From a virus (taxonomy: Duplodnaviria > Caudoviricetes), in the IMG/VR virus record IMGVR_UViG_3300037311_000064, positions 1-58,438 of that record: a DNA stretch of 58,438 nucleotides; one strand, given 5' to 3'. Of the stretch, positions 36,307 to 58,438 are shown one piece after another. Each line of letters opens with the position of its first letter. The first letter of the stretch is position 1. Below the pieces are notes generated by a model, which saw only the letters and a list, made by a program, of their open reading frames with translations, was not told the origin of the DNA and searched no databases. The position numbers and the translations under genes were made by a program.

Positions 36307-36564
36307 TCACAAGCCAGTGAGCTTTTTTACTTTCTCAAGCTCTGCAAGCTTTCGTTTTGCTTTAACTATGGCCTTTTTCTCTATGGAAGTTACCGCAGCT
36401 ATGGACATTCCTAGTAGCTTTGCTATCTCCGCTAGGGTGTGAGGGCGAGTGTTTAAACGCATGTAGGTAAAGAAGCAATTGTAGTGCTCGGGGGAGTTTA
36501 CCCACCAAGCATCAGGATCTTCCTGACATCTACAAGCATCTTTGTGTACGATCTTTGCACTCAT
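36307..36564 (-). CDS. Small sigma-region-4-like HTH protein
   Basis: PHTLAEIAKLLGMSIAAVTSIEKKAIVK matches sigma70 r4 HTH; Cys-rich N-terminus; first gene of late operon. Confidence 0.7.
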   Translation of the reverse strand: MSAKIVHKDACRCQEDPDAWWVNSPEHYNCFFTYMRLNTRPHTLAEIAKLLGMSIAAVTSIEKKAIVKAKRKLAELEKVKKLTGL

Positions 36565-43910: not shown

Positions 43911-44126
43911 ATGAAAAGAATAATTAGGCTAGTATATTTGTCAATAATTATAGGTTTGATACTTTTGCTGTCTCATCTTGAGGCATGGAATCGTGGGTAC
44001 GATACTGGTTACAAATCAGCCATGAGTGATGTTGTGTTAGGTATTGAGACACCTGAAAACTTTTTTATTAAATTGTTTGACATCAGGGTACCTAAGCGGT
44101 TAGAACAGAAGGAGGAGGCAAGATGA
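43911..44126 (+). CDS. Small membrane protein
   Basis: N-terminal TM helix followed by GYDTGY. Confidence 0.55.
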   Translation: MKRIIRLVYLSIIIGLILLLSHLEAWNRGYDTGYKSAMSDVVLGIETPENFFIKLFDIRVPKRLEQKEEAR

Positions 44127-44395: not shown

Positions 44396-44419
44396 TAACA
44401 AACCCATAAGGAGGGATTT

Positions 44420-44914: not shown

Positions 44915-45126
44915 TGCGAAGCGTCACAGTAGATTTCCGAGTCACTACTAGTGACTTGATGGATGTAAAAAATTGTTACGACCTTTACAACACGGAAGTT
45001 GCTGTGCGTTTCATGTTTGAAAAGCAGAATACTGGGCTGCGCTTCATCAAGATCGTAAGCGCAGATCCAGATCCTATTAACCATGACGCTGTGCTCATGA
45101 GGGTACAGGCGGAGCATGTTGAATGA
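44914..45126 (+). CDS. Hypothetical protein
   Basis: GGAGG RBS, TAATG coupling. Confidence 0.55.
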   Translation: MRSVTVDFRVTTSDLMDVKNCYDLYNTEVAVRFMFEKQNTGLRFIKIVSADPDPINHDAVLMRVQAEHVE

Positions 45127-45323
45127 AACTTTATGTCGTAATCATGGGTGAAAACTTTGAGGACGCTAAAGAGGCTCACGGAGAGAGCTTTTTCCCTTCA
45201 GTGGAAGAAGCTAGACTTTGGTGCCAGATTAGTTTGGACCCAGGTGAGAGATACATGATCTGCGATGAGAATGGTGGACTTCTTTATATCGGAGTCACGC
45301 CTAGACTGGTAGGTAGAGCGTGA
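45123..45323 (+). CDS. Hypothetical protein
   Basis: ATGA coupling. Confidence 0.55.
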   Translation: MKLYVVIMGENFEDAKEAHGESFFPSVEEARLWCQISLDPGERYMICDENGGLLYIGVTPRLVGRA

Positions 45324-45544
45324 CAAGAAAAGAAGCAAACTTAGAGTTGTTAAAGCATCTCACTGAAGCTGCAAAAACTTTTGATCAGTTAAGGTTTAAT
45401 CAACTGCTATTAGTGGTAGGGGTCGTAACTAAGTCTGACGATTTCTACGAAGAGTCTGAAGTAACTTTAGACAGAACCCTAGCTAAGCTAGAAGAGCTTT
45501 ATCTAGCTATTTTGGAGAAGCATGGTAAAGGTACAGAAGAGTAA
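45320..45544 (+). CDS. Hypothetical protein
   Basis: LRFNQLL...DDFYEES..TL pattern of a small phage family; GTGA coupling. Confidence 0.55.
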   Translation: MTRKEANLELLKHLTEAAKTFDQLRFNQLLLVVGVVTKSDDFYEESEVTLDRTLAKLEELYLAILEKHGKGTEE

Positions 45545-45872
45545 GTTCGGCAGGGGAGTTTTTACGACTCGCCCGATTAAAAAAGGTCAAACCGTTTTGG
45601 TCGATGATCTTCTATTGCTTCCGGCAAACGACTACGATAAGTCGTTGGTGATCAAGCGATACGCTTTTGCGTATGAAGACGCCTTCATGTGCTGTGCCAT
45701 CGCTTTAGGTAAAAGCTCGCTTATCAACCACTCCACTAGACCTAACTGCGATTATGAACCTACGACTGACGAAAATGGATTTCCTAAGCTCGAAGTATAC
45801 GCTTTAAAAAATATTCCAGCAGGAACCGAGTTAAAGATCGATTATGGGTACGACCCAACGGAGCCTTCATGA
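45522..45872 (+). CDS. SET-domain lysine methyltransferase (stand-alone)
   Basis: S..GRGVFTTRPIKKG, SLINHS..PNC, ALKNIPAGTELKIDYG are the canonical SET motifs. Confidence 0.9.
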   Translation: MVKVQKSKFGRGVFTTRPIKKGQTVLVDDLLLLPANDYDKSLVIKRYAFAYEDAFMCCAIALGKSSLINHSTRPNCDYEPTTDENGFPKLEVYALKNIPAGTELKIDYGYDPTEPS

Positions 45873-46129
45873 AAGATAACAGAGTAAAAGTCCAGGTAAT
45901 GCTGGACCTAGAGACAATCAATTTTATTAAAGATGTTGCAAGACTTGCAGGCACAGACCAGAACACGGTGGTCAATGTAATCCTTGCCACAAAACTCCTT
46001 CAGTGGGAAAGGGAAGACAATGACGCCACAAAGAAAAGCTCAGATAAAAGCAGTGATGGAAAGTCACCTAAAAAGCCTAGGTTGGCCAAGCGTGCCAAAC
46101 GCCGATCAACTCGTTCTAAACGAAGTTGA
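45869..46129 (+). CDS. Putative ribbon-helix-helix DNA-binding protein with basic tail
   Basis: VKVQVMLD.ET..FIKDVA...GTDQNTVVNVIL then K/R-rich tail. Confidence 0.45.
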   Translation: MKDNRVKVQVMLDLETINFIKDVARLAGTDQNTVVNVILATKLLQWEREDNDATKKSSDKSSDGKSPKKPRLAKRAKRRSTRSKRS

Positions 46130-46253
46130 GAACATGTTCCGTCTCCTTTTGAAACAGAACCTAGTTTCTTATGGAGACTACGAACAGTTCTACTTAGCCG
46201 CAATCTCTTCCTACGAGCGTGCGCAACTAAGAAAAGCTGGATTTAATGTTTGA
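46020..46253 (+). CDS. Hypothetical protein
   Basis: ATG 46020 (MTPQRK) behind AAGGGA; overlaps previous gene by 110 nt. Confidence 0.5.
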   Translation: MTPQRKAQIKAVMESHLKSLGWPSVPNADQLVLNEVENMFRLLLKQNLVSYGDYEQFYLAAISSYERAQLRKAGFNV

Positions 46254-46278
46254 CAGAAATAGTTAAGTATATTATGAT
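46250..46278 (+). promoter_or_regulatory. Near-consensus sigma70 promoter
   Basis: TTGACA-17 bp-TATGAT upstream of AAA ATPase. Confidence 0.75.
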
Positions 46279-46297
46279 TTTAGGATCGAGGTAATAA

Positions 46298-47212
46298 ATG
46301 AAGAAAGATAGAAGCTACGACGGTTACTCAAAAGAGAACGACAAGTATTACATCACACGAAGGGTACACAATAAGCAGGATGAGCTTCTGCCAGGTATCT
46401 ACCGTATTGATTTTGACCTAGAGAGAAAGCAGGTTTACCTGTACGAGACTGAGCTTAAGCATGATGAGCTGATTGATCTGCCAAACGCAGAGTATCAAGA
46501 AATCTTGCGAGTTATGGGTCGATTTTTGAAGGTTCGTCAGGGGTATGAGGATCTTGGGTTCTTGTACAAACGAAATGTGCTGATGTACGGTGTACCTGGA
46601 AGTGGTAAGACCTGCCTGGTAAACCGTATTGCTGAAGCTGCCGTTAAAGACAACGAAGCAATCTGCATCTTCATCGACCGAAAGACTGCGCAAGCCGGTG
46701 CCGACGGTGTACAGATGCTGGAGTTTATCCTAAACTGGCTTAAGGATACTAACCCAGACTCTTTGCTAGTTTTGATCTTTGAAGAGATCGATGAGATGAT
46801 CGCTCGAAACGAGCACCAGCTTCTAGTATTCCTCGATGGTCAGATGCAACGGCCAAACACGATCTGCTTGGGAACTACAAACTTCATTCAAAAAGTACCA
46901 CCGCGATTTCTTCGTCCAGGTCGATTTTCACAAACCGTGGAAATCAAGCTTCCTAACTTGACTGCTAGACGCTATTACCTTGAAGTCAAGCTGGGTAAAG
47001 ATTACCCTCACATTGAGCTTTGGTCTAAGAGCAGCAAAGGCATGAGTATTGATGATCTAAAAGAGATTATTCAATCTTGCCACCTGCTACAAGAACCATT
47101 CGAAAGAGTTATCGCACGCCTTCGAAAGACCAAAGGTTTAGCCGGAATGGATGACGAATCTGAAACTGATGATGAATGGATTCCAGATGTTTCTGAAGAG
47201 GCTGAACGATGA
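46298..47212 (+). CDS. AAA+ ATPase
   Basis: YKRNVLMYGVPGSGKT Walker A, LIFEEID Walker B, GTTN, RPGRF. Confidence 0.9.
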   Translation: MKKDRSYDGYSKENDKYYITRRVHNKQDELLPGIYRIDFDLERKQVYLYETELKHDELIDLPNAEYQEILRVMGRFLKVRQGYEDLGFLYKRNVLMYGVPGSGKTCLVNRIAEAAVKDNEAICIFIDRKTAQAGADGVQMLEFILNWLKDTNPDSLLVLIFEEIDEMIARNEHQLLVFLDGQMQRPNTICLGTTNFIQKVPPRFLRPGRFSQTVEIKLPNLTARRYYLEVKLGKDYPHIELWSKSSKGMSIDDLKEIIQSCHLLQEPFERVIARLRKTKGLAGMDDESETDDEWIPDVSEEAER

Positions 47213-47439
47213 TAACAGAGACCTTCTACCTATCGGACGAAAGTAACCTAGAGCGAGCTTGCGAGATAACAGGCTTAGCTCCCGATGAGATAGAAGATGT
47301 GGTTGGTCGTTTTACAAAGACTAGTCACCGATATGGCTCATTACGAGGCGAAGTTGTAATTTTTATTGACGGTAAGGTAGTCATCAGGCATCATTTCAAC
47401 AAGAAGAAGCTATGGGAGGGTTTTTATGAAGACTGTTAA
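47209..47439 (+). CDS. Hypothetical protein
   Basis: 76 aa, ATGA coupling. Confidence 0.5.
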   Translation: MITETFYLSDESNLERACEITGLAPDEIEDVVGRFTKTSHRYGSLRGEVVIFIDGKVVIRHHFNKKKLWEGFYEDC

Positions 47440-47944
47440 AATCAATGGTAGTCGCGCTAAAGGTAGAGAACTTATCGTAGATGATGAGGACTTTGAGTTA
47501 GTAAGTTCTTATAAATGGTATGTAGAGATTGGCGATAGTGGGACTTACGAAAAAGTTCGCGGATACAAAGACGGCAAAAAGGTTTATATTGGCCGTCTAA
47601 TACTGAATCATAATGGTGATAATAATTACCATGTAAACCATAAAAATCATAATGTTTTTGATAATCGCAGGGAGAATCTGGAGCTTATTCACCGCGACGA
47701 AAACAATAGATTTAGAAAAAAGCACACAAGAAACTCTACTGGTTTTAAAGGGGTCACGCGCCACCCTAAAAAGAAAGACAAATTCGTTGCACAAATAGAG
47801 ACAAGAATTAACGGCAGTAGAAAGGCTTATAATCTTGGAACTTTTGATACCGCCGAAGAAGCTGCAAGAGTTTATGATAAGAAGTGTATTGAGTTACAAG
47901 GAAAGTTTGCACTAACTAATTTTCCAAAAGAAGAGTATGTATGA
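47426..47944 (+). CDS. HNH-AP2 homing endonuclease
   Basis: IVDDEDFE, VNHKNHNVFDNRRENL, STGFKGV, LGTFDTAEEAARVYD...G.FA.TNF. Confidence 0.9.
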   Translation: MKTVKINGSRAKGRELIVDDEDFELVSSYKWYVEIGDSGTYEKVRGYKDGKKVYIGRLILNHNGDNNYHVNHKNHNVFDNRRENLELIHRDENNRFRKKHTRNSTGFKGVTRHPKKKDKFVAQIETRINGSRKAYNLGTFDTAEEAARVYDKKCIELQGKFALTNFPKEEYV

Positions 47945-48600
47945 GACATTTCACCAGCGATCATCACTTTTGGCATTCAAATATTCTTAAGTACTGCCCT
48001 AACAGGCAATACGCAAGCGTGGAGGAGATGAATGAAGCTCTTATTGAAAAATGGAACACGGTTGTTAAACCGAGTGACGAGGTATATTACCTTGGTGACT
48101 TCTCCCTCAACACAAGGGCTATCAAAGTTCGAGAGCGCCTTAACGGTACTGTTTATCTTATTCCTGGCAATCACGATAAATGCCATTCAGTAGTTTATAA
48201 GAAAAGCGAAGAGAAAAAGAAAAACAGCTTCAAGCTTTACGAAGATGCTGGATTCATTATCTTGCCAGAAAAGTTTTCTACTGTTTTGCAGCTTAATGAG
48301 CACGCAGCAGAAGAAGACAAGATTGCAGCACAACTTTGCCACCTTCCATATCAAGAAGACCCAAACAGCGAGTATACTCCTCGATTTATGGAGATCAGGC
48401 CAAAGCCAACTATTTTAAATCAAGTCCTTGTACACGGCCATGTACACCAACACTGGCGATCAAAATTATACACTGATCCCAGTTTGGGACAGTTTCCTAT
48501 GATTAATGTTGGCGTGGATGTTTGGAACGAGTATCCGGTACCTGAGACGGCACTTTATATTTTTGCAAAAGGTTTGCTTGACCAGCTAGGTCAAAAGTAG
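47941..48600 (+). CDS. Calcineurin-like metallophosphoesterase
   Basis: FTSDHHFWH, YLGDFS, GNHD, HGHVH, INVGVD. Confidence 0.9.
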   Translation: MRHFTSDHHFWHSNILKYCPNRQYASVEEMNEALIEKWNTVVKPSDEVYYLGDFSLNTRAIKVRERLNGTVYLIPGNHDKCHSVVYKKSEEKKKNSFKLYEDAGFIILPEKFSTVLQLNEHAAEEDKIAAQLCHLPYQEDPNSEYTPRFMEIRPKPTILNQVLVHGHVHQHWRSKLYTDPSLGQFPMINVGVDVWNEYPVPETALYIFAKGLLDQLGQK

Positions 48601-48623
48601 TATTGTCAAAAACAGGAGGGTTT

Positions 48624-48968
48624 ATGAAGATTCATCCAGACAGTCCGGCACCTAAGTCACAAGTAAAAAGGGTAGCAACTCTTATTGGCCTTGATCAGAT
48701 AGACTATGGGGTTTCTTACTCTTTAGTAAAAACTGGTGCCAAAAAAGAATCTAGCCTTGGTTATCCAGATGCTATGGTTGCTATTAAAGAAGGTGAGTTT
48801 GAGCTTGTAGGCGTCAACACTGATGAGGGTTGCCTAGTTTGGCTTGTTGGCTACGAGAGTCGCGGTTTTAATTGGTTTAAGACTAGCCCAGTGAAATCCT
48901 GTAAAAAAATTAAAAACGGATTCCGAATTGAAACTGAAAACTCTTTCTATGAGTTGAGGAAAGTGTGA
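48624..48968 (+). CDS. Hypothetical protein
   Basis: ATG 48624 behind GGAGG and TTGACC-17-TATTGT promoter; TSPV...ETENSFYEL motif. Confidence 0.6.
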   Translation: MKIHPDSPAPKSQVKRVATLIGLDQIDYGVSYSLVKTGAKKESSLGYPDAMVAIKEGEFELVGVNTDEGCLVWLVGYESRGFNWFKTSPVKSCKKIKNGFRIETENSFYELRKV

Positions 48969-49246
48969 GCCAACTCAGGATTCAGTCTAGTCATTTAGCT
49001 CTTCGCTTTTACAAGCACGACGGCTGGACGAAAGAGCTTCTTAATCAGTATCTTCTGTACGGAGAAGTTCTTGATGTTTGGAAAGATCAAGAGGTGCGAG
49101 ATTACTGGTTCTTGAATCACGAAAAGAACTCACACCTTGATATGGAGCGTTTGGTTAAAGATTTGAACCCTAGAGTTTTTAATTGGTCAAACGAAGAGCT
49201 TTCGGGAGAGCAAGCTCTTAGTTATTTAAAAGAGATGAATTGGTAG
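48965..49246 (+). CDS. Hypothetical protein
   Basis: GTGA coupling, GAGG RBS. Confidence 0.55.
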   Translation: MSQLRIQSSHLALRFYKHDGWTKELLNQYLLYGEVLDVWKDQEVRDYWFLNHEKNSHLDMERLVKDLNPRVFNWSNEELSGEQALSYLKEMNW

Positions 49247-49254
49247 GAGGATGC

Positions 49255-49614
49255 ATGAGAATCGGTAAGTATGAGTTTGGGTTGGTAAAACCTTTTGGTT
49301 GGTACAGCTTTCAGAAAGATACTAAATGCCTTTCTGGATGTACTATCTACATGTTTGGGCCGTTCTTTTTCACCATCCTAGCTAATGACTGTATTTCGTA
49401 CATTGAAGGTGAAACTGATGAGTGCATCGTAAAAGTCGAGCCTGTAAAAGAAACTCCGATGATGGGACTAGCAAAGCAGCTTGAGATGGCTATGTACTAT
49501 CCTGACAAGGCTTTGGCTCGTGATCGCAAGCGACAAAGAAAGAAGGTAAACAATGGCAAAGCGCTCCCCAAAAGAAAAAAGAAGCGTGTATCTCGTTCAA
49601 AAAATAAGAGATGA
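49255..49614 (+). CDS. Hypothetical protein with basic C-terminal tail
   Basis: ATG 49255 behind GGAGG. Confidence 0.55.
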   Translation: MRIGKYEFGLVKPFGWYSFQKDTKCLSGCTIYMFGPFFFTILANDCISYIEGETDECIVKVEPVKETPMMGLAKQLEMAMYYPDKALARDRKRQRKKVNNGKALPKRKKKRVSRSKNKR

Positions 49615-49837
49615 GTGGACACACACTTTGGGTATCTTTTCTACCTTTGCCTTAGCTGAAGCCGAGGCGAACAGGTATATTAGTCATTATGGTTTTGAAG
49701 GCTACCCAAAAAAGTTTGAGCGTTATGCTCCGAGTGGTTGGAGAAAACAAACCGCTGATGATGACTGGGGTAGTACCTCTTTCTACATCTTAAAGTATGA
49801 GCTAGATCTTGGTAGCACACAACTGGGAGGTAAGTAG
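49553..49837 (+). CDS. Hypothetical protein
   Basis: VYLV.......TLGIFST..LAE pattern of small phage proteins. Confidence 0.55.
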   Translation: MAKRSPKEKRSVYLVQKIRDEWTHTLGIFSTFALAEAEANRYISHYGFEGYPKKFERYAPSGWRKQTADDDWGSTSFYILKYELDLGSTQLGGK

Positions 49838-50151
49838 TGTTTGAACACGATGGCTTCACCTACACAGAAGCTGAGCTTGCGATGATCAAAGAGCTTCGTT
49901 GCGGAAAAATCTTACACTCTTACCGCGCTCTCGCACGCAAGTTCACCCGAGCAAACCCAGAGTTTGTAAAACGCAACAAGCTTGAAGAGATGGCAGATAA
50001 AGAGTACATGCTAAAAGAGTTAGCTCACGCCATCACCGTTAAAGAAGCAAAAGAGATGACACCTTGGGAAAACGGTAATCAACTGCTTGGTCAAGATCTT
50101 TGCATGGCAGCAGCGAAGTACTATGGAGAGGAAAATGAAGGGGAGTGGTAA
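49837..50151 (+). CDS. Hypothetical protein
   Basis: GGAGG RBS; SYRALA...GNQLLGQDLC.AA motif. Confidence 0.6.
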   Translation: MFEHDGFTYTEAELAMIKELRCGKILHSYRALARKFTRANPEFVKRNKLEEMADKEYMLKELAHAITVKEAKEMTPWENGNQLLGQDLCMAAAKYYGEENEGEW

Positions 50152-50305
50152 CTTAACCATTTTTACCGTAGAAGATGATATCGCTAACATGAAGCGACAC
50201 AGAGATAAGTTCATCAAGGCTATGGGCAAAGAAACCTACAAAAGGTTGCTTAAGAAACTGAAGGATTACAAGAAAGAAAAGGATCTGAAAAATGGACGAG
50301 CCTAA
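50135..50305 (+). CDS. Small basic hypothetical protein
   Basis: ATG 50135 behind GGAGAGG. Confidence 0.45.
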   Translation: MKGSGNLTIFTVEDDIANMKRHRDKFIKAMGKETYKRLLKKLKDYKKEKDLKNGRA

Positions 50306-50495
50306 GTACGGATACATGTGTGCAACTGACTTCAACTGGGAAGTGGGAGAAGCTCTTGGCGGAACAACCGTTTATCCCAGCGTTGAAGACTTAAAGCATC
50401 ACCGCAAGTGCGTTGAGCAGTGCGGCGTCGTAAAGGTTGAGGTAAAGCTCGTTGAGGTCGTAGAGCCAGGTAAAGGTTGGAGGCAAGATGGATAA
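50292..50495 (+). CDS. Hypothetical protein
   Basis: GYMCATDF..E.G.A.GG..VYPS.EDL...RKCV.QCG.V.V pattern. Confidence 0.6.
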   Translation: MDEPKYGYMCATDFNWEVGEALGGTTVYPSVEDLKHHRKCVEQCGVVKVEVKLVEVVEPGKGWRQDG

Positions 50496-50733
50496 CTGTC
50501 CAAAGTGCAAAGTTTCGTGGATTGGAGAACCCATTCCAGAAGACATCGCACATCACTACTCAGGTACACACTGGCGCAGGGAGATTGGTATCGACGGCGG
50601 CATGCTTGGTATCTATGATGGTATCGTTGCCTTAAAATGCCCAGACTGTAAAAACCTATTCCCACAAAATGACTCAGAATGGGCCAAATCAATGTTTTAT
50701 GAATATTTGCTTGCGGTTTCTGAACAAGCATAG
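50488..50733 (+). CDS. Zn-ribbon hypothetical protein
   Basis: CPKC...W.REIGI...YDG....CPDC. Confidence 0.65.
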   Translation: MDNCPKCKVSWIGEPIPEDIAHHYSGTHWRREIGIDGGMLGIYDGIVALKCPDCKNLFPQNDSEWAKSMFYEYLLAVSEQA

Positions 50734-50772
50734 TATAGTGAATTGATCAAGTATCTATAAAGGAGTGCGGAC

Positions 50773-51027
50773 ATGAAGAAGCCAGTGAAGGTAAACCCTT
50801 TTGATCCTATAGAGCCAGGACTACCTATGGAACATTACGATGATGGAACCATCAAGCGTAAGTCTTTAGGGGTGCCGGTTAGGTTGATGATGGCAACTGA
50901 GATTGTTTCCGGTATGTTGGCAAACTCTGAGGTTACTGATAAATTTTCAAACATAGCTAAGCTTGCTTTGGCTATGGCAGATGAGTTGATCAAGCAGCAT
51001 AACGAAGAGATTGAGAGGTTGCCGTGA
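50773..51027 (+). CDS. Hypothetical protein
   Basis: AAGGAG RBS; G...R...A...GMLAN...A..MADELI motif. Confidence 0.65.
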   Translation: MKKPVKVNPFDPIEPGLPMEHYDDGTIKRKSLGVPVRLMMATEIVSGMLANSEVTDKFSNIAKLALAMADELIKQHNEEIERLP

Positions 51028-51182
51028 GTATCTGGGTTTTAGTTTTGATCAGCGGTTTAAATACCTCTCAGATCCAACTCTTTGTTAATACTTTTGACTC
51101 TAAGCAAAAATGCGAAAAAAGAGCTTCAGAAATGTCAGATCACTATAAAAAAGCTTGTATCAAGACTGAGGTCAATAAATGA
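51024..51182 (+). CDS. Small secreted/membrane protein (52 aa, below track cut-off)
   Basis: MSIWVLVLISGL...FDSKQKCE...AC; GTGA and ATGA couplings on both sides. Confidence 0.55.
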   Translation: MSIWVLVLISGLNTSQIQLFVNTFDSKQKCEKRASEMSDHYKKACIKTEVNK

Positions 51183-51337
51183 AGTACTTGCTAGGTAGGA
51201 CTTTCTTTTATATCTTGATGTTGTGGGCTTTCGTGGACCGTGATGTAACGGTAGCTTCGGCTTTGACGATCTATGTGATATCGGTGGTAGCTATCATCTT
51301 CTTGCTATTCAGGGAGATGGAAAAGGAGCAGCTATGA
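51179..51337 (+). CDS. Small two-TM membrane protein (52 aa, below track cut-off)
   Basis: MKYLLGRTFFYILMLWAFVDRDVTVASALTIYVISVVAIIFLLFREMEKEQL; ATGA couplings. Confidence 0.55.
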   Translation: MKYLLGRTFFYILMLWAFVDRDVTVASALTIYVISVVAIIFLLFREMEKEQL

Positions 51338-51666
51338 ACAAGTGGATTTTTTTGACAGCAGCGCTGTCTATAACTTTCATGGGGATGCTACAGATTCCAC
51401 TAATGATTAGAAATAGAGAACTGGCAAGGCAGCTTACCCTCGAAAGGGGCGATGAGGTCGAGATCGTTAAGTTTTCTAGAACCGAGATGGACAACGGCTT
51501 GCTGAACGATTGTAAGGTTACTTATCTTGACCGAGTTGCAGTGAGCACGGACAATGTGGTCTTTTTATTGCTTCAGAACTGCTCGCACCCTTATTTTGCA
51601 GACAAGCAGGTTTGGTACGAGGTTAGACCCTTTTCAACCATAAGGAAAAAGTATGAAACGAAGTGA
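51334..51666 (+). CDS. Membrane-anchored hypothetical protein
   Basis: N-terminal TM helix; AAGGAG RBS. Confidence 0.55.
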   Translation: MNKWIFLTAALSITFMGMLQIPLMIRNRELARQLTLERGDEVEIVKFSRTEMDNGLLNDCKVTYLDRVAVSTDNVVFLLLQNCSHPYFADKQVWYEVRPFSTIRKKYETK

Positions 51667-51943
51667 GGCGCTTAAACTTATCGCAAATCAGTTGGACTTC
51701 TTAAAAGGCCGGTTTCACGGTCTTCGAACCAACTTCTCAGAGTCGGAGCTAAAAGAAGCTGATGTCATCCTGACTACCCTTGAAGACGCTGGCATGCAAC
51801 CGCCCAACATCACGCTTGAGCAGTTGATTCCAACAGCCGACCTAAAACCTGTTTCCGAACCCAAACACTACTATGCGTGCTGGGAACCGGAGACCGAAAA
51901 AGACGAAGACCCTTTCTTGAGCAGATCCAGTGGGGCCGTATGA
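51653..51943 (+). CDS. Hypothetical protein (MKRSE...GM.PP...WE family)
   Basis: Paralogous to the next gene. Confidence 0.6.
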   Translation: MKRSEALKLIANQLDFLKGRFHGLRTNFSESELKEADVILTTLEDAGMQPPNITLEQLIPTADLKPVSEPKHYYACWEPETEKDEDPFLSRSSGAV

Positions 51944-52206
51944 AACGCCCCGAGATGCGAGAGATCATCAGACAAGAACTCCTAAAAACCGTAGGCGGTG
52001 ACGCAGCCAAACACATGGCCGAAGATATCCTCTTTCTAATCGAAAAAGCCGGTATGCGACCACCTTGTTTACCTGACCAATATTGTCAAGCTTTACTTGA
52101 TGTTTACATTGACCCAAACCTAAACCAGTGGGAAGAAGAGGTAGTAAAAGACCAGAAGGTAATGGAAAGAGTAAAGCTAAGGGAAGAATGGAGAAATAAG
52201 CCATGA
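51940..52206 (+). CDS. Hypothetical protein (paralog of preceding gene)
   Basis: MKRPEM...IL..IEKAGMRPP...WE; ATG 51940. Confidence 0.6.
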   Translation: MKRPEMREIIRQELLKTVGGDAAKHMAEDILFLIEKAGMRPPCLPDQYCQALLDVYIDPNLNQWEEEVVKDQKVMERVKLREEWRNKP

Positions 52207-52937
52207 GGGTATACCGGAAGAAGTATGAGACTTTAGTTGGAAAAGTTATAAATGATAGAACTGTAATTAAAGCTTTATCAAAAGGAAGGGTTTTGGTTTC
52301 TTGCAATTCTTGTGGAGAAAAGGCTAATGTAGTAGGGACTAATATTTATAAAGTAAGATGTAAGTGCGTTAGGGAGCCTTATAAAATACACGGTTTTAGT
52401 AGCACTAGTGAGTATATATCTTGGAGATCAATGATTGAAAGATGTACAGACCCTTCACAAAAACATTATAAATTATATGGCGGAGCTGGTATTAAAGTTT
52501 GTGATCGTTGGTTAGATATCAAGAATTTTATGGAGGATATGGGTAAAAAACCAACCCCAAAACACACTTTAGATAGAAAGGATTCTACGAAAGGGTACTT
52601 TCCAGAAAATTGTAGATGGGCCACGCCAGCAGAGCAAGCCAGAAATAGAAAAAGTAATATCCTGGTAGAATTAAATGGTGAAAAGCTTTGTTTAAAAGAT
52701 TACTGCCTTGCTTTAAATGTAAATTACAACTTAGTTCGTCGTAGGTTATCTGAGGGTAAAACTCTTGAAGAAGCTGTTAAACCTATACAAACAGCTTACC
52801 TATCAAAAACATTAGATCCAAAAGAAGTCAAGAAGCTAGTTGACGCTGGTTTAACTTACAAAGAAGTAGCGAATAAACTTGGTGTCAAGTATTGGCATAT
52901 AAAACGGGTGTATCACAAGCTTAAGGGGGTAAAATGA
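52203..52937 (+). CDS. HNH-type homing endonuclease with C-terminal HTH
   Basis: EYISWRSMIERC...YGGAGIKVCDRW...F.EDMG.KP...TLDRKD..KGY.PENCRWAT..EQARN; low GC. Confidence 0.85.
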   Translation: MRVYRKKYETLVGKVINDRTVIKALSKGRVLVSCNSCGEKANVVGTNIYKVRCKCVREPYKIHGFSSTSEYISWRSMIERCTDPSQKHYKLYGGAGIKVCDRWLDIKNFMEDMGKKPTPKHTLDRKDSTKGYFPENCRWATPAEQARNRKSNILVELNGEKLCLKDYCLALNVNYNLVRRRLSEGKTLEEAVKPIQTAYLSKTLDPKEVKKLVDAGLTYKEVANKLGVKYWHIKRVYHKLKGVK

Positions 52938-53194
52938 GCAAGATTAAACCAGGCGATGTGATCAAGCACGAGAAGTTCATGGATGTGTGCTTTTTGGTGT
53001 ATGGAGTTTCTCAGAAGGATGATGGCTTCGGCATTGTCGGATGCTGGATGAACATGGGCTACACCAGATCTTGGATGATCGATAGCGGTCAGATCTTCAT
53101 CAAGCACGAGGATATTCCTAAATGGGCAGTCTGCACCGATGAAGGTTCTAAACCCTGTATCCGGTACTGCACCTGGGTCAGCCTAGCTTCATAA
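52934..53194 (+). CDS. Hypothetical protein
   Basis: 86 aa, last gene before an 800-bp non-coding gap. Confidence 0.55.
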   Translation: MSKIKPGDVIKHEKFMDVCFLVYGVSQKDDGFGIVGCWMNMGYTRSWMIDSGQIFIKHEDIPKWAVCTDEGSKPCIRYCTWVSLAS

Positions 53195-53434
53195 CGCAAC
53201 GCGTCAAATACATACAGTCAGGATAAATATACGGTAGCCTCCTAGAAGCGCACCGTTCGCTTTCAGTTCGCTTTTCCTCGCAGGGGCGGAACTGTACCCC
53301 TATTCTATATTGCTTCAAAGTGTGATGCCTTTAGGAGCGTTTTATCACTAAAGTTTCTCTGAAATCAAATATTTAGCTTCTGAGAACTTTTAAAAAAATT
53401 TAAAAAATATTTGACCTGAAAACTTCTAGATTCA

Positions 53435-53596
53435 CGATAATAATATTATCGACGCACTGCGTCACATACAATTTTTCAAAAAATTATGAGGGAGACCCCT
53501 TAGCACCCAGTCTGGGCCGATCACTGGAAGCAGCCCATCCCCCCGTAATCATTAAGGATTCTCATATTGATACATTCACGATAATATACATTATCG
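53435..53596. repeat. Two copies of palindrome CGATAAT-N3/4-ATTATCG
   Basis: 53435-53451 and 53579-53596, both preceded by ATTCA and followed by A. Confidence 0.75.
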
Positions 53597-53808
53597 AGAG
53601 TTGTCTCATTTTGATACGCGTTTTTCTTTTTTTGAAAATTCTCTATAATGTTTGAATGCGTTTCACCGGATACCCTTTGGAGTCGTTCCAATGCGTCCGA
53701 TTGACAGCGCTGAAACTAGGCATGCATTCGGTCCAGTCTTATCAATCCTTATAATTGACAGCATTGAACCAATCTCATTCTGATACAACATGCCCTTTTT
53801 TGTCACCT

Positions 53809-53948
53809 TGTCTATAAGTTCGACAGCGCTGAAGCTATTGAATTCACTAGGCTATTCTGAAAACGGTATCATTTGACTATAAGTTCAACACTTTCTCAAT
53901 ACGAGAATCCAGTGATTTCAAGCACTTAGCTTTGGCATCGTGCATGCA
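53809..53948 (+). promoter_or_regulatory. sigma54 promoter module 1 (UAS, IHF box, -24/-12)
   Basis: TGG-CATCGTGCAT-GCA (GG 53934-35, GC 53946-47); IHF-like TTTCAAGCACTTA 53916-53928; dyads TGTCTA-N5-TCGACA 53809 and GACTA-N5-TCAACA 53875. Confidence 0.75.
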
Positions 53949-54002
53949 TTCTTATAAGGCAAGACGGTCAAGACGACGGTCAAAACAAAGGAGCGTATCA
54001 CT

Positions 54003-54287
54003 ATGAAACAGAATAATCGTGGACAGGCAGTTTGTGCCTCATTATGGAACGCGATCACTGAAGAACTCACCTTGTCTCAATATGAGAAGACAATGGGTGG
54101 GGACATGTCTTATAAGGCTAAGGCGCTTAAGGCAATGGAAGTGTCTCGTTCTAAGACAGTACAGGCATTGTGTATCGATCTGATACAGGCTTATGAGTAT
54201 CATTTTGAGCCATTGTCTTATAAGGCTGAACTAGATCAATTGAGAACGGCGCTAGGCGCTGATGTCTCAGAATGGGACGGCAACTAA
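54003..54287 (+). CDS. Hypothetical early protein
   Basis: AAAGGAG RBS; downstream of sigma54 promoter. Confidence 0.65.
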   Translation: MKQNNRGQAVCASLWNAITEELTLSQYEKTMGGDMSYKAKALKAMEVSRSKTVQALCIDLIQAYEYHFEPLSYKAELDQLRTALGADVSEWDGN

Positions 54288-54314
54288 CTTTTTTAAAATA
54301 CTTGACAGAATACC

Positions 54315-54341
54315 TCAAGTTTTGAGAAAATAGACCGATAA
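54315..54341 (+). promoter_or_regulatory. sigma28 (FliA)-type promoter 1
   Basis: TCAAGTTTT...ACCGATAA, 15 bp between TCAA and -10. Confidence 0.8.
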
Positions 54342-54392
54342 GAGATAAGAACGGCGGACGATGAACGGACGCCGAAACAAAGGAGTATCAAT

Positions 54393-55184
54393 ATGAGTCA
54401 AATTCAAGTGTTCGATAAGAATCAAGGTTTTAATGTTTCAGAACGATACAAGGCTGTCAATACAGCCCAATTAGTGTCTCATTTTGAGAATGCTGGCTAT
54501 ACGGTGGCAAGTCTCAAAACGAGTCGCGTTCGAAACGCTGAAAAACAAGGGTATCAAAAGCATCTTCTCAGATTGAGACATCCAGACTTGACGCTGAATG
54601 CCTTATCAGGATTGACGCCGGAAATCATTGTCTCAAATTCATACGATGGGACTTCAGCATTTCGTCTCATGATGGGAATTTTCCGCTTGGTCTGTGCGAA
54701 TGGTCTCATTGTGGGACAGGCTTATGAGTCAATTCGAGTCGTTCATGTTGGCGACGCATTGACTAAGGTCTTGGACGCGGCGCATCGTGTTCAAGTCCAG
54801 ACTCAAGAGATCGGGTCTCAAATCGAGACATGGTCCAAGATTGAACTCACTGATTCTCAGATTGAGTCGTTTGCAAGACAGGCCTCAAAACTTATCTTGC
54901 CGTCTCAAGATGATACGAATGTGATTCCCATTGTGAGACATCAAGACTTGCTCCGCGTTCGACGGTCGGACGATCAAGGTCGAGACCTTTGGACAGTGTT
55001 CAATCGCATTCAAGAGAATGCCTTGCAAGGCGGTCTGTCTTATAGTCGAGTCAATGAGACCGGACGCGTTCGAAACATGACAGCGCGTCGAATTCAGGCC
55101 ATTGACAGGTCTGTCCAAGTCAATCGGTCCCTTTGGGACTTAGCGTCTCAGATTGAGACTAAGGGCTTGATCACAGCGGCTTAA
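54393..55184 (+). CDS. DUF932/DUF945 family protein
   Basis: VSERY....T, KHLLRLR, PEIIVSNSYDGTSAF....GIFRLVCANGLIVG, RRSDD...DLWTVFNRIQEN...GG, VNRSLW. Confidence 0.88.
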   Translation: MSQIQVFDKNQGFNVSERYKAVNTAQLVSHFENAGYTVASLKTSRVRNAEKQGYQKHLLRLRHPDLTLNALSGLTPEIIVSNSYDGTSAFRLMMGIFRLVCANGLIVGQAYESIRVVHVGDALTKVLDAAHRVQVQTQEIGSQIETWSKIELTDSQIESFARQASKLILPSQDDTNVIPIVRHQDLLRVRRSDDQGRDLWTVFNRIQENALQGGLSYSRVNETGRVRNMTARRIQAIDRSVQVNRSLWDLASQIETKGLITAA

Positions 55185-55193
55185 TTTGATACG

Positions 55194-55226
55194 GCGCTCG
55201 TCTCAAAATGAGATGGGCGCTTTTTT
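55194..55226 (+). terminator. Intrinsic terminator built on the palindrome
   Basis: GCGCTCGTCTCA-AAA-TGAGATGGGCGC-TTTTTT. Confidence 0.8.
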
Positions 55227-55248
55227 CTGATTTTTTCGCATTCAGGCC

Positions 55249-55275
55249 TCAAGTTTTAAAACATTCGACCGATAA
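55249..55275 (+). promoter_or_regulatory. sigma28 (FliA)-type promoter 2
   Basis: TCAAGTTTT...ACCGATAA, 15-bp spacing. Confidence 0.8.
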
Positions 55276-55321
55276 GAGATAAGAACACGGTCAAGACGAC
55301 CGAAAACAAAGGAGTATCAAA

Positions 55322-56065
55322 ATGAGATTATTAACTGAAGCTCACGCGAACGCAAAAACGGCTAAAAATGAGACGATGGGTGATTTTCTGTCTTATATTC
55401 TACACTTAGCGCCTTATAAGCTTAGCGGCGTCAATGTCTGTCCCATGGCCTCAAGGGGATGCGCCGCCGCTTGTTTGAACACGGCGGGACGCGGTCGATT
55501 CGACTCAATCCAAGAGGCCCGTCTCAAAAAGACACGCCGTTTTATTGACTCACGGTCTGAATTCATGGCCGATCTAGTCAAGGACTTGACCGCCGTTGAA
55601 CGCAAGGCCTTGAAACTAGGCAAGACCGCCGTCGTTCGACTCAATGGGACTTCAGACATTGACTGGACAGTGATCAAGACAGACGACGGTCGGACAGTGT
55701 TCGAGCGTTTCAGCTCGATACAGTTTTATGATTATACCAAAGTGATACGCCGTCTCGAAAAGATGCGTCTCAATCCGATACCCAATTATCACTTGACATT
55801 TTCTCGAAGTGAGTCAAACCACGACGAGTGTCTCAAAGCGATACAGTTGGGGTTCAATGTTGCCGCCGTGTTTCAAACTGAGAATTTTCCCGAGTCGTTT
55901 CAAGGTCGTCCCATCATTGACGGTGATTCTCACGACTTGCGTTTCTTAGACATGCGTCCAGCGGACGGTCTAGGCGCATTCGTGGGACTCAAGGCCAAGG
56001 GACAAGCGAAAAAAGACACAAGCGGCTTTGTGATTCAAATTGAGACAGTTGCAAAGGCAGCCTAA
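55322..56065 (+). CDS. Phage Gp88-like protein (Cys cluster, radical-SAM-like)
   Basis: NVCPMASRGCAAACLNTAGRG, VRLNGTSDIDW, QFYDYTK, NYHLTFS.SE, DGDSHDLRFLD, VGLKAKG.A.KD.SGFV. Confidence 0.8.
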   Translation: MRLLTEAHANAKTAKNETMGDFLSYILHLAPYKLSGVNVCPMASRGCAAACLNTAGRGRFDSIQEARLKKTRRFIDSRSEFMADLVKDLTAVERKALKLGKTAVVRLNGTSDIDWTVIKTDDGRTVFERFSSIQFYDYTKVIRRLEKMRLNPIPNYHLTFSRSESNHDECLKAIQLGFNVAAVFQTENFPESFQGRPIIDGDSHDLRFLDMRPADGLGAFVGLKAKGQAKKDTSGFVIQIETVAKAA

Positions 56066-56100
56066 GCGTCTCAATATGAAACATTCTAATCAAGTGCTCC

Positions 56101-56126
56101 GCCGTCTCAGGATGAGACGGTTTTTT
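56101..56126 (+). terminator. Intrinsic terminator built on the palindrome
   Basis: GCCGTCTCA-GGA-TGAGACGGT-TTTTT. Confidence 0.8.
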
Positions 56127-56131
56127 CTTTT

Positions 56132-56474
56132 GAGTCCAGCGGTCCAGACTAGAGTCGAACGGTCTAGGCCTGTCAATGCTGGACCGTCCAGCGTTCAAGG
56201 TCTAGAGTCCGGTCCTGTCAAGGCGCGGCGTCCAGCGGTCGAGTCAAGGCCATGCGACGCGTTCAAAGGTCCAGCGGCGTCAATTCAAGGCGCGTCAAGG
56301 CATTCAGTCCAGCGGTCTAGAGTCGAGTCCAAAGGTCGAAACGCCGCGTCAAGGCCATGCATTGACGGTCAAGGTCTAGAGTCTAGGCCTGTCAATCGGA
56401 TGCCTTGCAAGGCCTGTCAATGCGTCGAGTCCGGTCCAGCGTCCAGTCAATCCGACCGATTGAATGCGTCGAAC
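56132..56474 (+). repeat. Non-coding array of strand-biased GTCNA(G) words
   Basis: About 30 GTCCA/GTCAA/GTCGA/GTCTA in ~340 bp, almost none on the opposite strand. Confidence 0.85.
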
Positions 56475-56630
56475 TATTTGACATGTCGAGAAGATCGACA
56501 AAACAGCGTTTTTCAGAGTCGAATCAATGGCTTGACTCACTTGACAGCGCTGAAGCGACTAGAAGTTCGACAGAGTCTCAATATGGGATCTGAATGTTTT
56601 CAATGGCTTAGTCGTGGCATGCATCATGCA
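56467..56630 (+). promoter_or_regulatory. sigma54 promoter module 2 (UAS, IHF boxes, -24/-12)
   Basis: TGG-CATGCATCAT-GCA (GG 56616-17, GC 56628-29); IHF-like TTTCAATGGCTTA 56598-56610 and consensus AATCAATGGCTTG 56522-56534; dyads at 56467, 56484, 56557. Confidence 0.78.
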
Positions 56631-56665
56631 TTAATAATTAATGAGAACGAAACGAGGGTATCAAT

Positions 56666-56953
56666 ATGAAACGCAGTTTCAAATTGGTACGACTTCAGGA
56701 CTTGACCGGCACTAGTGGGACCGGAGTCGTGGCTCAAGGTGAGACACAACCTGATGGGCGTACCATTATGAGATGGATTGTCCAAGCAAACTTGGCCGAT
56801 GGATCAAAACGAGAAATCAAAACCACGACTCATTATGAGACATGGCAAGATGTCGTTTTGCTACACGGTCACGGTGGGCGTACCATTTTGAGATGGGACG
56901 ACACAGGTGAGAGTGTCTCAGATTGGGACTTGCTTGGAGTCAAGGCAGCATAA
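56666..56953 (+). CDS. Hypothetical early protein
   Basis: F.LVR.QD.TG.SGTGVVA.G...DG....RW...HGHGG.T...W pattern of a recurrent phage family. Confidence 0.75.
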   Translation: MKRSFKLVRLQDLTGTSGTGVVAQGETQPDGRTIMRWIVQANLADGSKREIKTTTHYETWQDVVLLHGHGGRTILRWDDTGESVSDWDLLGVKAA

Positions 56954-56967
56954 AGGAGTGTATCAAA

Positions 56968-57030
56968 ATGGAACTATTGAGTTTGGCATTGTCTTTGCTT
57001 GTGTTCCTATATGGGACATGCTACGAGTGA
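56968..57030 (+). CDS. Candidate 20-aa hydrophobic peptide
   Basis: AAAGGAG RBS and palindrome at start like neighbours; MELLSLALSLLVFLYGTCYE. Confidence 0.4.
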   Translation: MELLSLALSLLVFLYGTCYE

Positions 57031-57061
57031 TGTATTAAAATGAGAAAGTTGACTGATTGAC

Positions 57062-57089
57062 TCAAGTTTTTCAGTCAATCGACCGATAA
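57062..57089 (+). promoter_or_regulatory. sigma28 (FliA)-type promoter 3
   Basis: TCAAGTTTT...ACCGATAA, 16-bp spacing. Confidence 0.78.
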
Positions 57090-57146
57090 GAAGTAAAACA
57101 AACCCCTAGTCTCGGAATGAGACAGGGCAAACAAAGGAGTATCAAA

Positions 57147-57638
57147 ATGGGATATACACATTATTGGACATTCAAGAAAGCGCCTCGTGGTGAGGCGGTT
57201 CAAACTGAGAAAGCGTATCAAAAAGCGATCATCGAGTGTACCAAGGTGATACAGTACTACTCCCAAGAGTTCGGCGGTCTGTCTGGTTTTTCAGCGCATG
57301 CGCCGCTTGGTCTGTATCGTGGACTTGAGGTCAATGGTTCATCCCGAGTCGGTCAATGTGAGTCGTTCTCACTTCGAGAACGCTACTCCCTGAATAAGAT
57401 TCCAGACTTTTGTAAGACCAACGCGTATCCTTATGATACAGTCGTCGTCGCTTGTCTTATCATCTTGAAACGCCGCCTAGGCGATCTCATTGAGGTACAC
57501 TCCGACGGTCGTCGAGACGACTGGAACGATGGTCTAGTTCTTGCACAGAAAGTTCTCGGATTGAAACGCTTGGGTATCCCCGAGTCAATCCGTCCCAATG
57601 TTAAGACCCCCGAACTGTCTCAGGATGAGGCAGTCTAA
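57147..57638 (+). CDS. Hypothetical early protein (MGYTHYW family)
   Basis: MGYTHYW...E.F...FCKT...PYD.VV.ACL....SDG...DW; ATG 57147 behind AAAGGAG. Confidence 0.75.
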   Translation: MGYTHYWTFKKAPRGEAVQTEKAYQKAIIECTKVIQYYSQEFGGLSGFSAHAPLGLYRGLEVNGSSRVGQCESFSLRERYSLNKIPDFCKTNAYPYDTVVVACLIILKRRLGDLIEVHSDGRRDDWNDGLVLAQKVLGLKRLGIPESIRPNVKTPELSQDEAV

Positions 57639-57648
57639 CTCCTTGTTT

Positions 57649-57684
57649 CCCCTGCCGTCTCGTAGTGAGACGGTGGGGGTTTTT
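57649..57684 (+). terminator. Intrinsic terminator built on the palindrome
   Basis: CCCCTGCCGTCTCG-TAG-TGAGACGGTGGGGG-TTTTT. Confidence 0.75.
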
Positions 57685-57715
57685 AACCTACTACCTACCA
57701 AAGGAGCGCCCCAAA

Positions 57716-58153
57716 ATGAAACAGTATACCCTCTCCGAATCTCAAGTTGAGACCCTACTTCGAGCGCTGTCCAACGAGTCGAGCGTCGATCAAGAACTAG
57801 AGTCAAGGCGCGTCTTGACACCCGAAGACATCCGAAGTCGGGCCAAGGCAAGAGTCGAGATCAAGCGTCTACTCCGTGGACAGTTGACGCCGGTCGTACT
57901 CCCCGAAGTGAAACGCGCTATTGATAAGGCCTTGACAGTGTTCGACGAGTCCCTAGTCAATGGTCTAGGCAATGGTCAAGACGATGCATTGACAGCGATG
58001 GACTCCGAACTAGTCCAGCGTCCCATGCGCGAAGCAAGGGCCAAGCTGTATAGCGCGGCGTCGGAGTTTTGTTTGCAAATAGGCCTCAAGTTTTCGAGTG
58101 ATTCTGCCGATAAGAGTGAAACAAACCAGGAGGATCAAAATGAAACAGTCTAA
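57716..58153 (+). CDS. Hypothetical early protein
   Basis: ATG 57716 behind AAAGGAG. Confidence 0.6.
   Translation: MKQYTLSESQVETLLRALSNESSVDQELESRRVLTPEDIRSRAKARVEIKRLLRGQLTPVVLPEVKRAIDKALTVFDESLVNGLGNGQDDALTAMDSELVQRPMREARAKLYSAASEFCLQIGLKFSSDSADKSETNQEDQNETV
58086..58113 (+). promoter_or_regulatory. sigma28 (FliA)-type promoter 4 (inside preceding ORF)
   Basis: TCAAGTTTT...GCCGATAA (consensus -10), 16-bp spacing. Confidence 0.8.
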
Positions 58154-58355
58154 TGTGATCAAGCTTGTGCCTCGAAATGAGAATTTTAACGAGGACCTAG
58201 TGATGGTCCAGAACTTGCAACAAATGATCGATGCTCTCGTTTTGAAACACGGTGCGCATTTAGTCCTTGCAAACTTGCCGAGCATGGTGCAAGATGCACA
58301 GACCAAGGCCCGAGCATCGAGACAAGAAGTCAAGCAAAGAAAGGTAGGCTCATAA
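58140..58355 (+). CDS. Hypothetical early protein
   Basis: ATG 58140 behind AGGAGG. Confidence 0.6.
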   Translation: MKQSNVIKLVPRNENFNEDLVMVQNLQQMIDALVLKHGAHLVLANLPSMVQDAQTKARASRQEVKQRKVGS

Positions 58356-58438
58356 TGGGACAGTCAAAGGTTTTTATTGCAAGGCATCAACTAGGTGCCC
58401 GACAGTGGTTCACCGTCTACATTGACGGTCTTGAGTGT
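58355..58438 (+). CDS. Hypothetical protein, truncated by window end
   Basis: TAATG coupling; MGQSKVFIARHQLGARQWFTVYIDGLEC... Confidence 0.45.
   Translation, partial: MGQSKVFIARHQLGARQWFTVYIDGLEC

Follow-up and report, generated by a model that had tools for sequence, protein, structure and literature searches.

The window analysed here is the entire IMG/VR record IMGVR_UViG_3300037311_000064, a linear stretch of 58,438 b rated at 50% completeness by CheckV. It belongs to an uncultured phage lineage of the ~118-kb type. Close to the end of the record lie four sites resembling the bipartite promoters of sigma-28 (FliA), the sigma factor of flagellar genes, each positioned upstream of a small gene. 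The same block is occupied by a dense array (53603..57753) of a 15-bp palindrome, GTCTCA-N3-TGAGAC. The putative promoters P1 to P4 and the units behind them are the following:

54315..54341, + strand: putative promoter P1, TCAAGTTT (54315-54322), N11, ACCGATAA (54334-54341), upstream of the DUF932 gene
54393..55184, + strand: DUF932 protein gene, 263 aa (PF06067 4e-36; phrog_12094 1.7e-55)
55193..55221, + strand: predicted intrinsic terminator of the DUF932 unit, a hairpin of 13 pairs followed by a run of T, with a palindrome copy (55200) at the hairpin tip
55249..55275, + strand: putative promoter P2, TCAAGTTT-N11-ACCGATAA, upstream of the GP88-family gene
55322..56065, + strand: GP88-family protein gene, 247 aa (PF17338 7.8e-45; phrog_1617 9e-68)
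56101..56121, + strand: predicted intrinsic terminator of the GP88 unit, based on an exact palindrome copy (56104)
57062..57089, + strand: putative promoter P3, TCAAGTTT-N12-ACCGATAA, upstream of the 163-aa gene
57147..57638, + strand: 163-aa protein gene, matching no Pfam or PHROG family
57649..57679, + strand: predicted intrinsic terminator of the 163-aa unit, based on a palindrome copy (57657)
58086..58113, + strand: putative promoter P4, TCAAGTTT-N12-GCCGATAA, upstream of the 71-aa gene
58140..58355, + strand: 71-aa protein gene, matching no family

The pattern CTCAAGTTTT-N9-12-CCGATAAG has exactly four matches in the window, all on the + strand, with starts at 54314, 55248, 57061 and 58085, and has no match in 100 dinucleotide-preserving shuffles. 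These starts lie one base before the coordinates of the sequence-only reading, an earlier examination of this DNA made without database searches, which mark the T of TCAAGTTT. The -35 octamer TCAAGTTT and the -10 octamer (A/G)CCGATAA are present at all four sites. Relative to the Escherichia coli sigma-28 consensus TAAAGTTT-N11-GCCGATAA (PMC2859248), the window sites differ at 1-2 of 16 letters, with 7/8 letters shared in the -35 octamer and 7-8/8 in the -10 octamer. The end of the -10 octamer is separated from the start codon by 51, 46, 57 and 26 nt at P1 to P4, respectively, and each ATG has AAGGAG or AGGAGG 7-8 nt upstream. CCGATAA occurs nine times in the window, accompanied by the upstream element in four copies only. 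A looser scan ([GT]TT-N11-14-CCGATA) adds two sites, at 18713 and 47307, both of which are located inside genes and lack a -35 match.

The sequence-only reading had placed the motif at the four listed positions, 25-60 bp before start codons with strong ribosome-binding sites (RBSs), and had seen it nowhere else in the window. The pattern count, the measured distances of 26-57 nt and the five other CCGATAA copies, which are devoid of the upstream element, bear this out. Its assignment of the sites to the sigma-28 type also holds, as octamers, spacer, placement and conservation all fit. By all sequence criteria tested, the four sites are sigma-28-type promoters, and it is very probable that they act as promoters. 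Because the record ends 325 nt past the last site, four is a lower bound for their number.

Relatives of the window phage were identified by scanning IMG/VR with TCAAGTTT-N11-13-CCGATAAG, which matched 101 stretches, 80 of them listed. Among the matches listed there were six multi-match loci, and the records behind five of them were taken further; L083 and the single-match contigs, which may be due to chance, were left out. Record G001 (117,954 b, with a 122-b terminal repeat, rated 100% complete) encodes a head protein 87% identical to that of the window, and record G002 (78,422 b) encodes one that is 90% identical. Gene order is shared between G001 and the window, at a nucleotide identity of 65-75%, and the equivalent of the 29-88 kb region of G001 is missing from the window. 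Eight sites lie on one strand of G001 (83.5-91.8 kb) and nine on one strand of G002 (64.0-73.3 kb); the reversed control pattern has no match in either. Four of the G001 sites are located past the point that matches the end of the window. By this comparison, the array is longer than the window shows: its first half, with four sites, is present, and the record end cuts off the rest.

The 21 sites of the window, G001 and G002 are all on the coding strand, and 20 of them have an RBS and start codon 20-67 nt downstream. T[C/A/T]AAGTTT, CCGATAA and a spacer of 11 or 12 nt are each found in 21/21 sites. Seven sites of the relatives contain the consensus -35 octamer TAAAGTTT, and five of these equal the whole E. 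coli consensus as quoted above. The flanking letters are near-invariant: a C precedes the -35 octamer and a G follows the -10 octamer at 21/22 sites each. All four window sites have orthologues before orthologous genes in G001 and G002; those of P1 are at 91762 on the - strand of G001 and at 64308 in G002. Pairwise comparison within the four orthologous sets gives 94/96 identical letters for the -35 octamer, 93/96 for the -10 octamer (97-98%) and 60/113 (53%) for the spacer; the flanks agree at 99/240 letters (41%) over 20 nt downstream and at 156/252 over 21 nt upstream. Conserved octamers around a freely varying spacer are the footprint expected of a bipartite promoter. Genes behind further G001 sites encode a GHKL-type ATPase of 685 aa and an AAA_25 ATPase, besides small open reading frames (ORFs); between the sites, the window, G001 and G002 differ in gene content.

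The same site stands before an RBS and ATG in three further records, G003 (L157, 1-20000), G004 (L154) and G005 (L155-L156), whose head proteins are unrelated to that of the window. G005 contains about ten sites, on both strands. The palindrome is present in 0-1 copies in these three records, which probably have other hosts. Together with the window sites, the occurrence of the motif in three unrelated contigs suggests that phages commonly use sigma-28 promoters and that this has been overlooked; we found no paper on sigma-28-dependent phage promoters.

The units behind the sites are compact. Strong intrinsic terminators close the first three of the four. A hairpin is predicted in three of the leaders, just 5' of a free Shine-Dalgarno sequence, with energies of -13.0, -7.2 and -12.6 kcal/mol (z-scores -4.0, -2.2 and -2.7). 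The last of these belongs to the leader of the 163-aa gene downstream of P3, the hairpin of which includes a palindrome copy (57109). The remaining leader is too short for folding. Judging from the layout, the genes would be early.

The sequence-only reading had called for a check of the rest of the genome for a phage-encoded sigma factor, and family searches detected none in the window or in the complete relative G001. Sigma70_r2 has no match in a six-frame search of the window, G001 and G002, and FliA_WhiG (TIGR02479) matched none of six phage records. TIGR02937 matches only a region-4-like ORF of 85/86 aa, below cut-off, and a weak Sigma70_r4/TIGR02937-type match is also located inside the HNH endonuclease gene. 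The region-4-like ORF of the window is the following:

36307..36564, - strand: 85-aa protein with a sigma-70 region-4-like helix-turn-helix (HTH) (PF04545, 26 bits; no region 2)

The gene of the 85-aa HTH protein is at the head of the structural arm of the genome, adjoining a palindrome copy at 36565, and the protein is conserved in G001, G002 and the sister contig from a metagenome-assembled genome (MAG) described below (75% identity). It is the only sigma-like piece found, and we do not claim it as the reader of the promoters. The idea that it is a copy of a host regulator was rejected, as five Bdellovibrionales genomes contain no homologue of it. The 20 mid-size ORFs from the half of G001 that is missing in the window contain no sigma domain; they include dNMP kinase, dUTPase, RuvC-like protein, macro domain, metallophosphatase, RNA ligase, FKBP, ClpP and trypsin-like peptidase. 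One weak Sigma70_r2 match (15 bits, below cut-off) in a 188-aa ORF of G003 is the only such match in G003-G005. Since the motif equals the cellular consensus in its octamers and spacing, a phage-encoded reader should resemble sigma-28, and none was detected; the host sigma-28 is thus the likeliest reader. The sharing of the motif by the unrelated G003-G005 likewise points to a common cellular reader. We infer from these comparisons that the sites are probably read by the sigma-28 of the host.

The identity of that host was approached through the major head protein, which was searched for in 185,579 species genomes. The scan returned three loci, the best of which, 91% identical, is on a 14,980-b contig of the MAG 'Proteobacteria bacterium SG_bin7'. 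The contig represents a sister phage, with a ThyX 87% identical to that of the window and DNA 65-78% identical over window positions 38.8-46.5 kb. Of the 80 best loci for the RpoD of SG_bin7, 76 have Bdellovibrio-type names (72-89% identity), three are uninformative, and one is the MAG itself. SG_bin7 also falls in the genome sample drawn from the order of Bdellovibrio bacteriovorus Bd16. SG_bin7 also has a FliA gene, with a FliA_WhiG match of 193 bits, above cut-off; another Bdellovibrionales MAG gives 276 bits.

In B. bacteriovorus, TTAAG-N16-CCGATA is present in 92 of 140 attack-phase promoters, and FliA has been proposed as the global attack-phase regulator (Karunker et al. 2013, PMC3627812). 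The phage sites fit TNAAG-N15/16-CCGATA, and three sites in the relatives have TTAAG. Matches to TNAAG-N15/16-CCGATAA in Bdellovibrionales genomes number 25 vs 6, 21 vs 3 and 21 vs 10 for pattern and control. Among the matches listed for three genomes, 14/67, counted by eye, hold GAGAC or GTCTC. The pattern TMAAGTTT-N11-13-CCGATAAG, which is too strict, gave four matches in three genomes among 21 relatives of the MAG.

The palindrome provides a second, independent link to the proposed host. With at most one mismatch, 19 of the 23 copies in the window fall within 53603..57753, and with at most two, 40 of 48 are in 53.5-58.4 kb. The co-location with the promoter block recurs in the relatives, where (at most two mismatches) 63 of 75 copies are in 84-94 kb of G001 and 59 of 66 in 62-70 kb of G002. 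Copies sit in coding DNA, in the leader hairpin and at the tips of all three terminators, and degenerate forms lie over the RBS-ATG region. Chromosomal copies were counted with at most one mismatch against a reversed-pattern control, and a genome was marked if it had at least 15 copies and at least three times the control. The counts are as follows:

B. bacteriovorus Bd16: 66 copies, control 12
MAG SG_bin7: 37 copies, control 4
Two further Bdellovibrionales genomes: 55 and 35 copies, controls 5 and 1
One Pseudobdellovibrionaceae MAG: 1 copy, control 4
61 genomes drawn evenly from the order: median 34, control median 6
25 genomes from many other phyla: median 1, maximum 7, control not above the pattern
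121 genomes from the phylum of an Enterobacterales MAG: maximum 15 copies

The mark was reached by 46/61 genomes of the order and by 1/146 comparison genomes (0/25 of the mixed sample and 1/121 of the other phylum). The density of the palindrome differs between the order sample and the 25 mixed genomes with p = 5e-13 (Mann-Whitney). In the phylum to which a Desulfocucumaceae MAG belongs (Bacillota by title), 101 genomes have 0-2 exact copies each, vs 14 and 9 in two Bdellovibrionales genomes. In Bd16, exact copies occupy the tips of terminator-like hairpins, clearly so at 3 of the 14 sites inspected, and one exact copy overlaps the -35 element of a sigma-28-type promoter, as at sites in G002. 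The palindrome is a chromosomal signature of the Bdellovibrionales. Its sharing by a Bdellovibrionales chromosome and a phage is previously undescribed; we found no paper on it in the literature on Bdellovibrio regulators, binding motifs and half-sites. A palindrome that saturates the promoter block and also marks the order proposed for the host suggests that phage and host have a further level of regulation in common.

Several results weigh against a host in the Bdellovibrionales or are neutral. The long sister contig was found in one MAG only, and the other two head-protein loci belong to a Saccharibacteria MAG and a Chitinophaga MAG, where the contigs are 2-2.7 kb long. The strict form of the site is upstream of 0/11 flagellin genes in two Bdellovibrionales genomes, where looser variants were seen by eye, and flagellin promoters were therefore rejected as a host logo. 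Window positions 38439-58438 gave no convincing CRISPR-like match in 384 genomes of the order. Some match was present in 36 of the 384, consisting, besides the sister contig, of thyX stretches (67-73%, seven genomes) and short matches of 26-61 nt, several of which fall in an A/T-rich stretch. The best cellular identities of ThyX, 57-63%, are to Bdellovibrionota, but in a tree of 81 rows, built by a quick method, the phage pair falls outside the clade of Bdellovibrionota; it forms a long branch next to a 'Deltaproteobacteria' contig of 3 kb. ThyX was rejected as host support because the tree is neutral and the phage gene is not nested in Bdellovibrionota. The IlvE-like aminotransferase is uninformative as a host marker, with 41 loci at no more than 38% identity spread over many phyla and archaea. 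The palindrome excess is missing from 15/61 genomes of the order. The Bdellovibrio phage phi1422 (JQ177062) contains neither a palindrome copy (at most one mismatch) nor a sigma-28-type site, so neither feature is general to phages of Bdellovibrio. The proposal of a Bdellovibrio-like host in the sequence-only reading thus stands in part: the sister contig in a Bdellovibrionales MAG and the order-specific palindrome speak for it, and the IlvE, ThyX and CRISPR checks gave it no support. On balance, we favor a host in the Bdellovibrionales, with reservations.

The same results could mean that the sites are read by the sigma-28 of another motile bacterium, such as a freshwater proteobacterium or a member of the Bacillota, and that the Bdellovibrionales signals are due to coincidence or mis-binning. 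The head protein is nearest to those of SPO1-like Bacillus phages (best identity 34%, range 31-34%); its matches in 342 phage records are all below 60% identity, and 228 of the records are Bacillus phages. The RBSs are strong and Gram-positive-like, and the sigma-28 consensus is near-universal, so the promoters by themselves name no host. The short sister contigs, the neutral ThyX tree, the lack of a spacer match and the absence of both motifs from phi1422 would also agree with a host elsewhere. This explanation has to account for the enrichment of the palindrome in the Bdellovibrionales and its scarcity in the comparison genomes, those titled Bacillota included. The only long sister contig, moreover, is in a Bdellovibrionales MAG that has a palindrome excess of its own, and terminators and one sigma-28-type promoter of the proposed host are built on the palindrome of the phage. 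We regard a host of another kind as possible but doubtful. It is less plausible still that a phage-encoded specificity factor reads the motif, be it a divergent sigma factor, a split one like T4 gp55/gp33 or a polymerase-modifying protein, in which case the block would be of the middle class. Phages are known to encode sigma factors, among them SPO1 gp28 and gp33/34, T4 gp55 and phiEco32 gp36. The 85-aa HTH protein is conserved in all three phages; 7 of the 20 mid-size G001 ORFs, and many smaller ones, match no family and could include a novel specificity factor. The search for a T7-type RNA polymerase (PF00940) gave no match and is uninformative, as its control matched 0/14 genomes. A reader of both octamers should, however, have regions 2 and 4, and Sigma70_r2, TIGR02937 and FliA_WhiG found no such protein in G001. 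The 85-aa protein lacks region 2 and is encoded at the head of the structural arm, and the unrelated G003-G005 share the motif, none of them with a FliA/WhiG family protein. We consider a phage-encoded reader unlikely.

The repeats might also not be promoters but recombination sites at cassette boundaries, or operators, with transcription starting from nearby sigma-70 promoters. P1 is overlapped by a sigma-70-like match, TTGACA-18-GAAAAT (10/12 letters), several sites of the relatives have TTGAC(T/C) 7-8 nt upstream, and the variable gene content between the sites would suit cassette exchange. No sigma-70-like match overlaps P2-P4, however, and the upstream TTGAC is missing at most sites. The contrast between octamers and spacer in the orthologous sets is that of a bipartite promoter rather than of a recombination core, and strand, RBS distance and the terminator that follows mark transcription units. 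We therefore hold this explanation to be very improbable. Sigma-28-class (FliA/SigD/WhiG) working promoters, read by the holoenzyme of a host that most likely belongs to the Bdellovibrionales, remain the reading that we prefer, and we believe it to be somewhat better than an even guess.

Textbook lytic phages start with promoters of the housekeeping sigma factor, or bring their own polymerase or sigma factor. In the window phage, each site would head a short unit made of a promoter, a leader of ~20-50 nt (with a hairpin in three of four), a strong RBS and a small accessory gene, and host RNA polymerase with sigma-28 would transcribe these units. To a phage, a periplasmic predator is accessible only while it swims freely as an attack-phase cell. 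Sigma-28 would be the main sigma factor of that phase in the Bdellovibrionales, and more than a flagellar one; two thirds of the mapped attack-phase promoters of B. bacteriovorus are assigned to it (PMC3627812). As the attack phase is the only stage open to the phage and would run on sigma-28, the block is probably expressed straight after injection. The combination of promoters, hairpin leaders, strong RBSs and terminators could provide immediate, high and insulated expression of DUF932, GP88 and the proteins without a family, and in the relatives the ATPases further along would be expressed likewise. A dimeric DNA-binding protein or an RNA-hairpin-binding factor, of host or phage origin, may gate or end this expression through the palindromes. 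The 85-aa HTH protein, which has no host homologue, is a candidate for such a factor. The motif, its placement and conservation, the absence of a detectable sigma gene from the phage and both host links are observed; what we infer is that sigma-28 holoenzyme reads the sites, that the block is early and that it is coupled to the life cycle. It is conceivable, and we put it forward tentatively, that the lineage consists of ~118-kb lytic phages of obligate predators, the first genes of which are wired to the predator life cycle by sigma-28 takeover cassettes, and that a host or phage factor acting on the host palindrome switches the block at prey entry and the turn to growth, so that the developmental sigma switch of the predator would set the timing of the virus.

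Dependence of a phage block on one of the host's alternative sigma factors would tie infection to the physiological state of the host, which in a Bdellovibrio-like host would be the attack phase. If so, the block would provide a genomic handle on large phages of predatory bacteria, since the sequenced phages of Bdellovibrio in the literature found, phi1422 and microviruses, are small. It would also supply ready-made strong attack-phase promoters, leaders and terminators for Bdellovibrio engineering. Simple experiments should suffice to test the proposal, as there are sites that equal the E. coli consensus, and the palindrome shared by a Bdellovibrionales chromosome and a phage calls for a binding factor.

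Octamers and spacer length of the phage sites agree with those of class 3 flagellar (FliA) promoters in E. coli and Salmonella (PMC2859248). The phage sites differ in preceding small accessory genes rather than flagellar or chemotaxis genes, and in their near-invariant flanking C and G. The TNAAG-N15/16-CCGATA form is common to the phage sites and the attack-phase promoters of B. bacteriovorus (PMC3627812); the phage sites are, however, closer to the full enterobacterial consensus than are the upstream regions of Bdellovibrionales flagellin genes that were inspected.

As an array of short units, the block is similar to the host-takeover module of SPO1, a large myovirus to which the head protein also points. 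Each short unit of that module reportedly has its own strong promoter and strong RBS. SPO1 has early promoters of the housekeeping sigma-A type and encodes its own sigma factors for later classes. The window differs in that its promoters belong to the sigma-28 class and the searches detected no sigma factor of the phage. Among phages of Bdellovibrio, phiMH2K is a microvirus. phi1422 is a 45-kb dwarf myovirus (PMC3391216). It is similar to the window phage in the proposed host group and in having a guanine-cytosine content (44%) below that of B. bacteriovorus, as is that of the window (~40-49%). Unlike phi1422, the window lineage is of ~118 kb and contains the palindrome and the sigma-28-type sites.

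The window genome is organized in two arms. The - strand arm, from ~36.6 kb down to base 1, contains structural genes (prohead protease, major head protein and tail proteins). The + strand arm, from 36.9 kb to the record end, is a long run of small genes that also includes an exonuclease gene. Family searches identified the following genes in it:

37663-38652, + strand: class IV aminotransferase (IlvE-like)
39640-40329, + strand: ThyX
41104-41955, + strand: tyrosine recombinase, XerC/D-like
52203-52937, + strand: HNH endonuclease

No peptide deformylase (Def) was found among the ORFs scanned, and no DNA similarity of window positions 54200-58438 was found to 50,697 phage records.

Matches to two other promoter types bear on further parts of the sequence-only reading, in which sigma-54 would be active besides sigma-28 and the phage would later turn to sigma-70-type promoters. 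Three TGGCAT-N5-NTGC boxes, resembling sigma-54 promoters, are located on the + strand at 53933-53947, 56615-56629 and 56984-56998, the first two 36-58 nt before the RBS-ATG of genes without a sigma-28-type site. G001 contains a single counterpart, at 92573 on the - strand, and the promoter block of G002 contains none. Across the window, the sigma-54 pattern with two mismatches has 50 matches vs 41 expected. Sigma-70-like matches in 45.0-58.4 kb number 28 vs 20.2 +/- 5.2 in shuffles.

The promoter block is headed by an ORF-free stretch of ~800 nt (53195-54002) with A/T runs and sigma-70-like hexamers. The stretch also contains two TTCACGATAATA..TATTATCGA palindromes (~53433 and ~53577) and two copies of the 12-mer GACAGCGCTGAA. 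This 12-mer occurs three times on the + strand (53703, 53822 and 56543) vs 0.04 expected, always in non-coding DNA of the block, and is extended to TTGACAGCGCTGAA in two of the three occurrences. The region 56130-56600 has few ORFs and many short GTC-words (GTCCAGCG, GTCAAGGC, GTCTAGAG), in which the program TRF finds no tandem array; within 56149-56192, 42 nt are skipped in one related metagenome contig. Near the block of G001, the 73-81 kb region (L143, L144) encodes the macro domain, metallophosphatase, RNA ligase, FKBP and ClpP proteins, together with a trypsin-like peptidase, an S8 peptidase and a collagen-like protein, and G001 carries one tRNA-Met.

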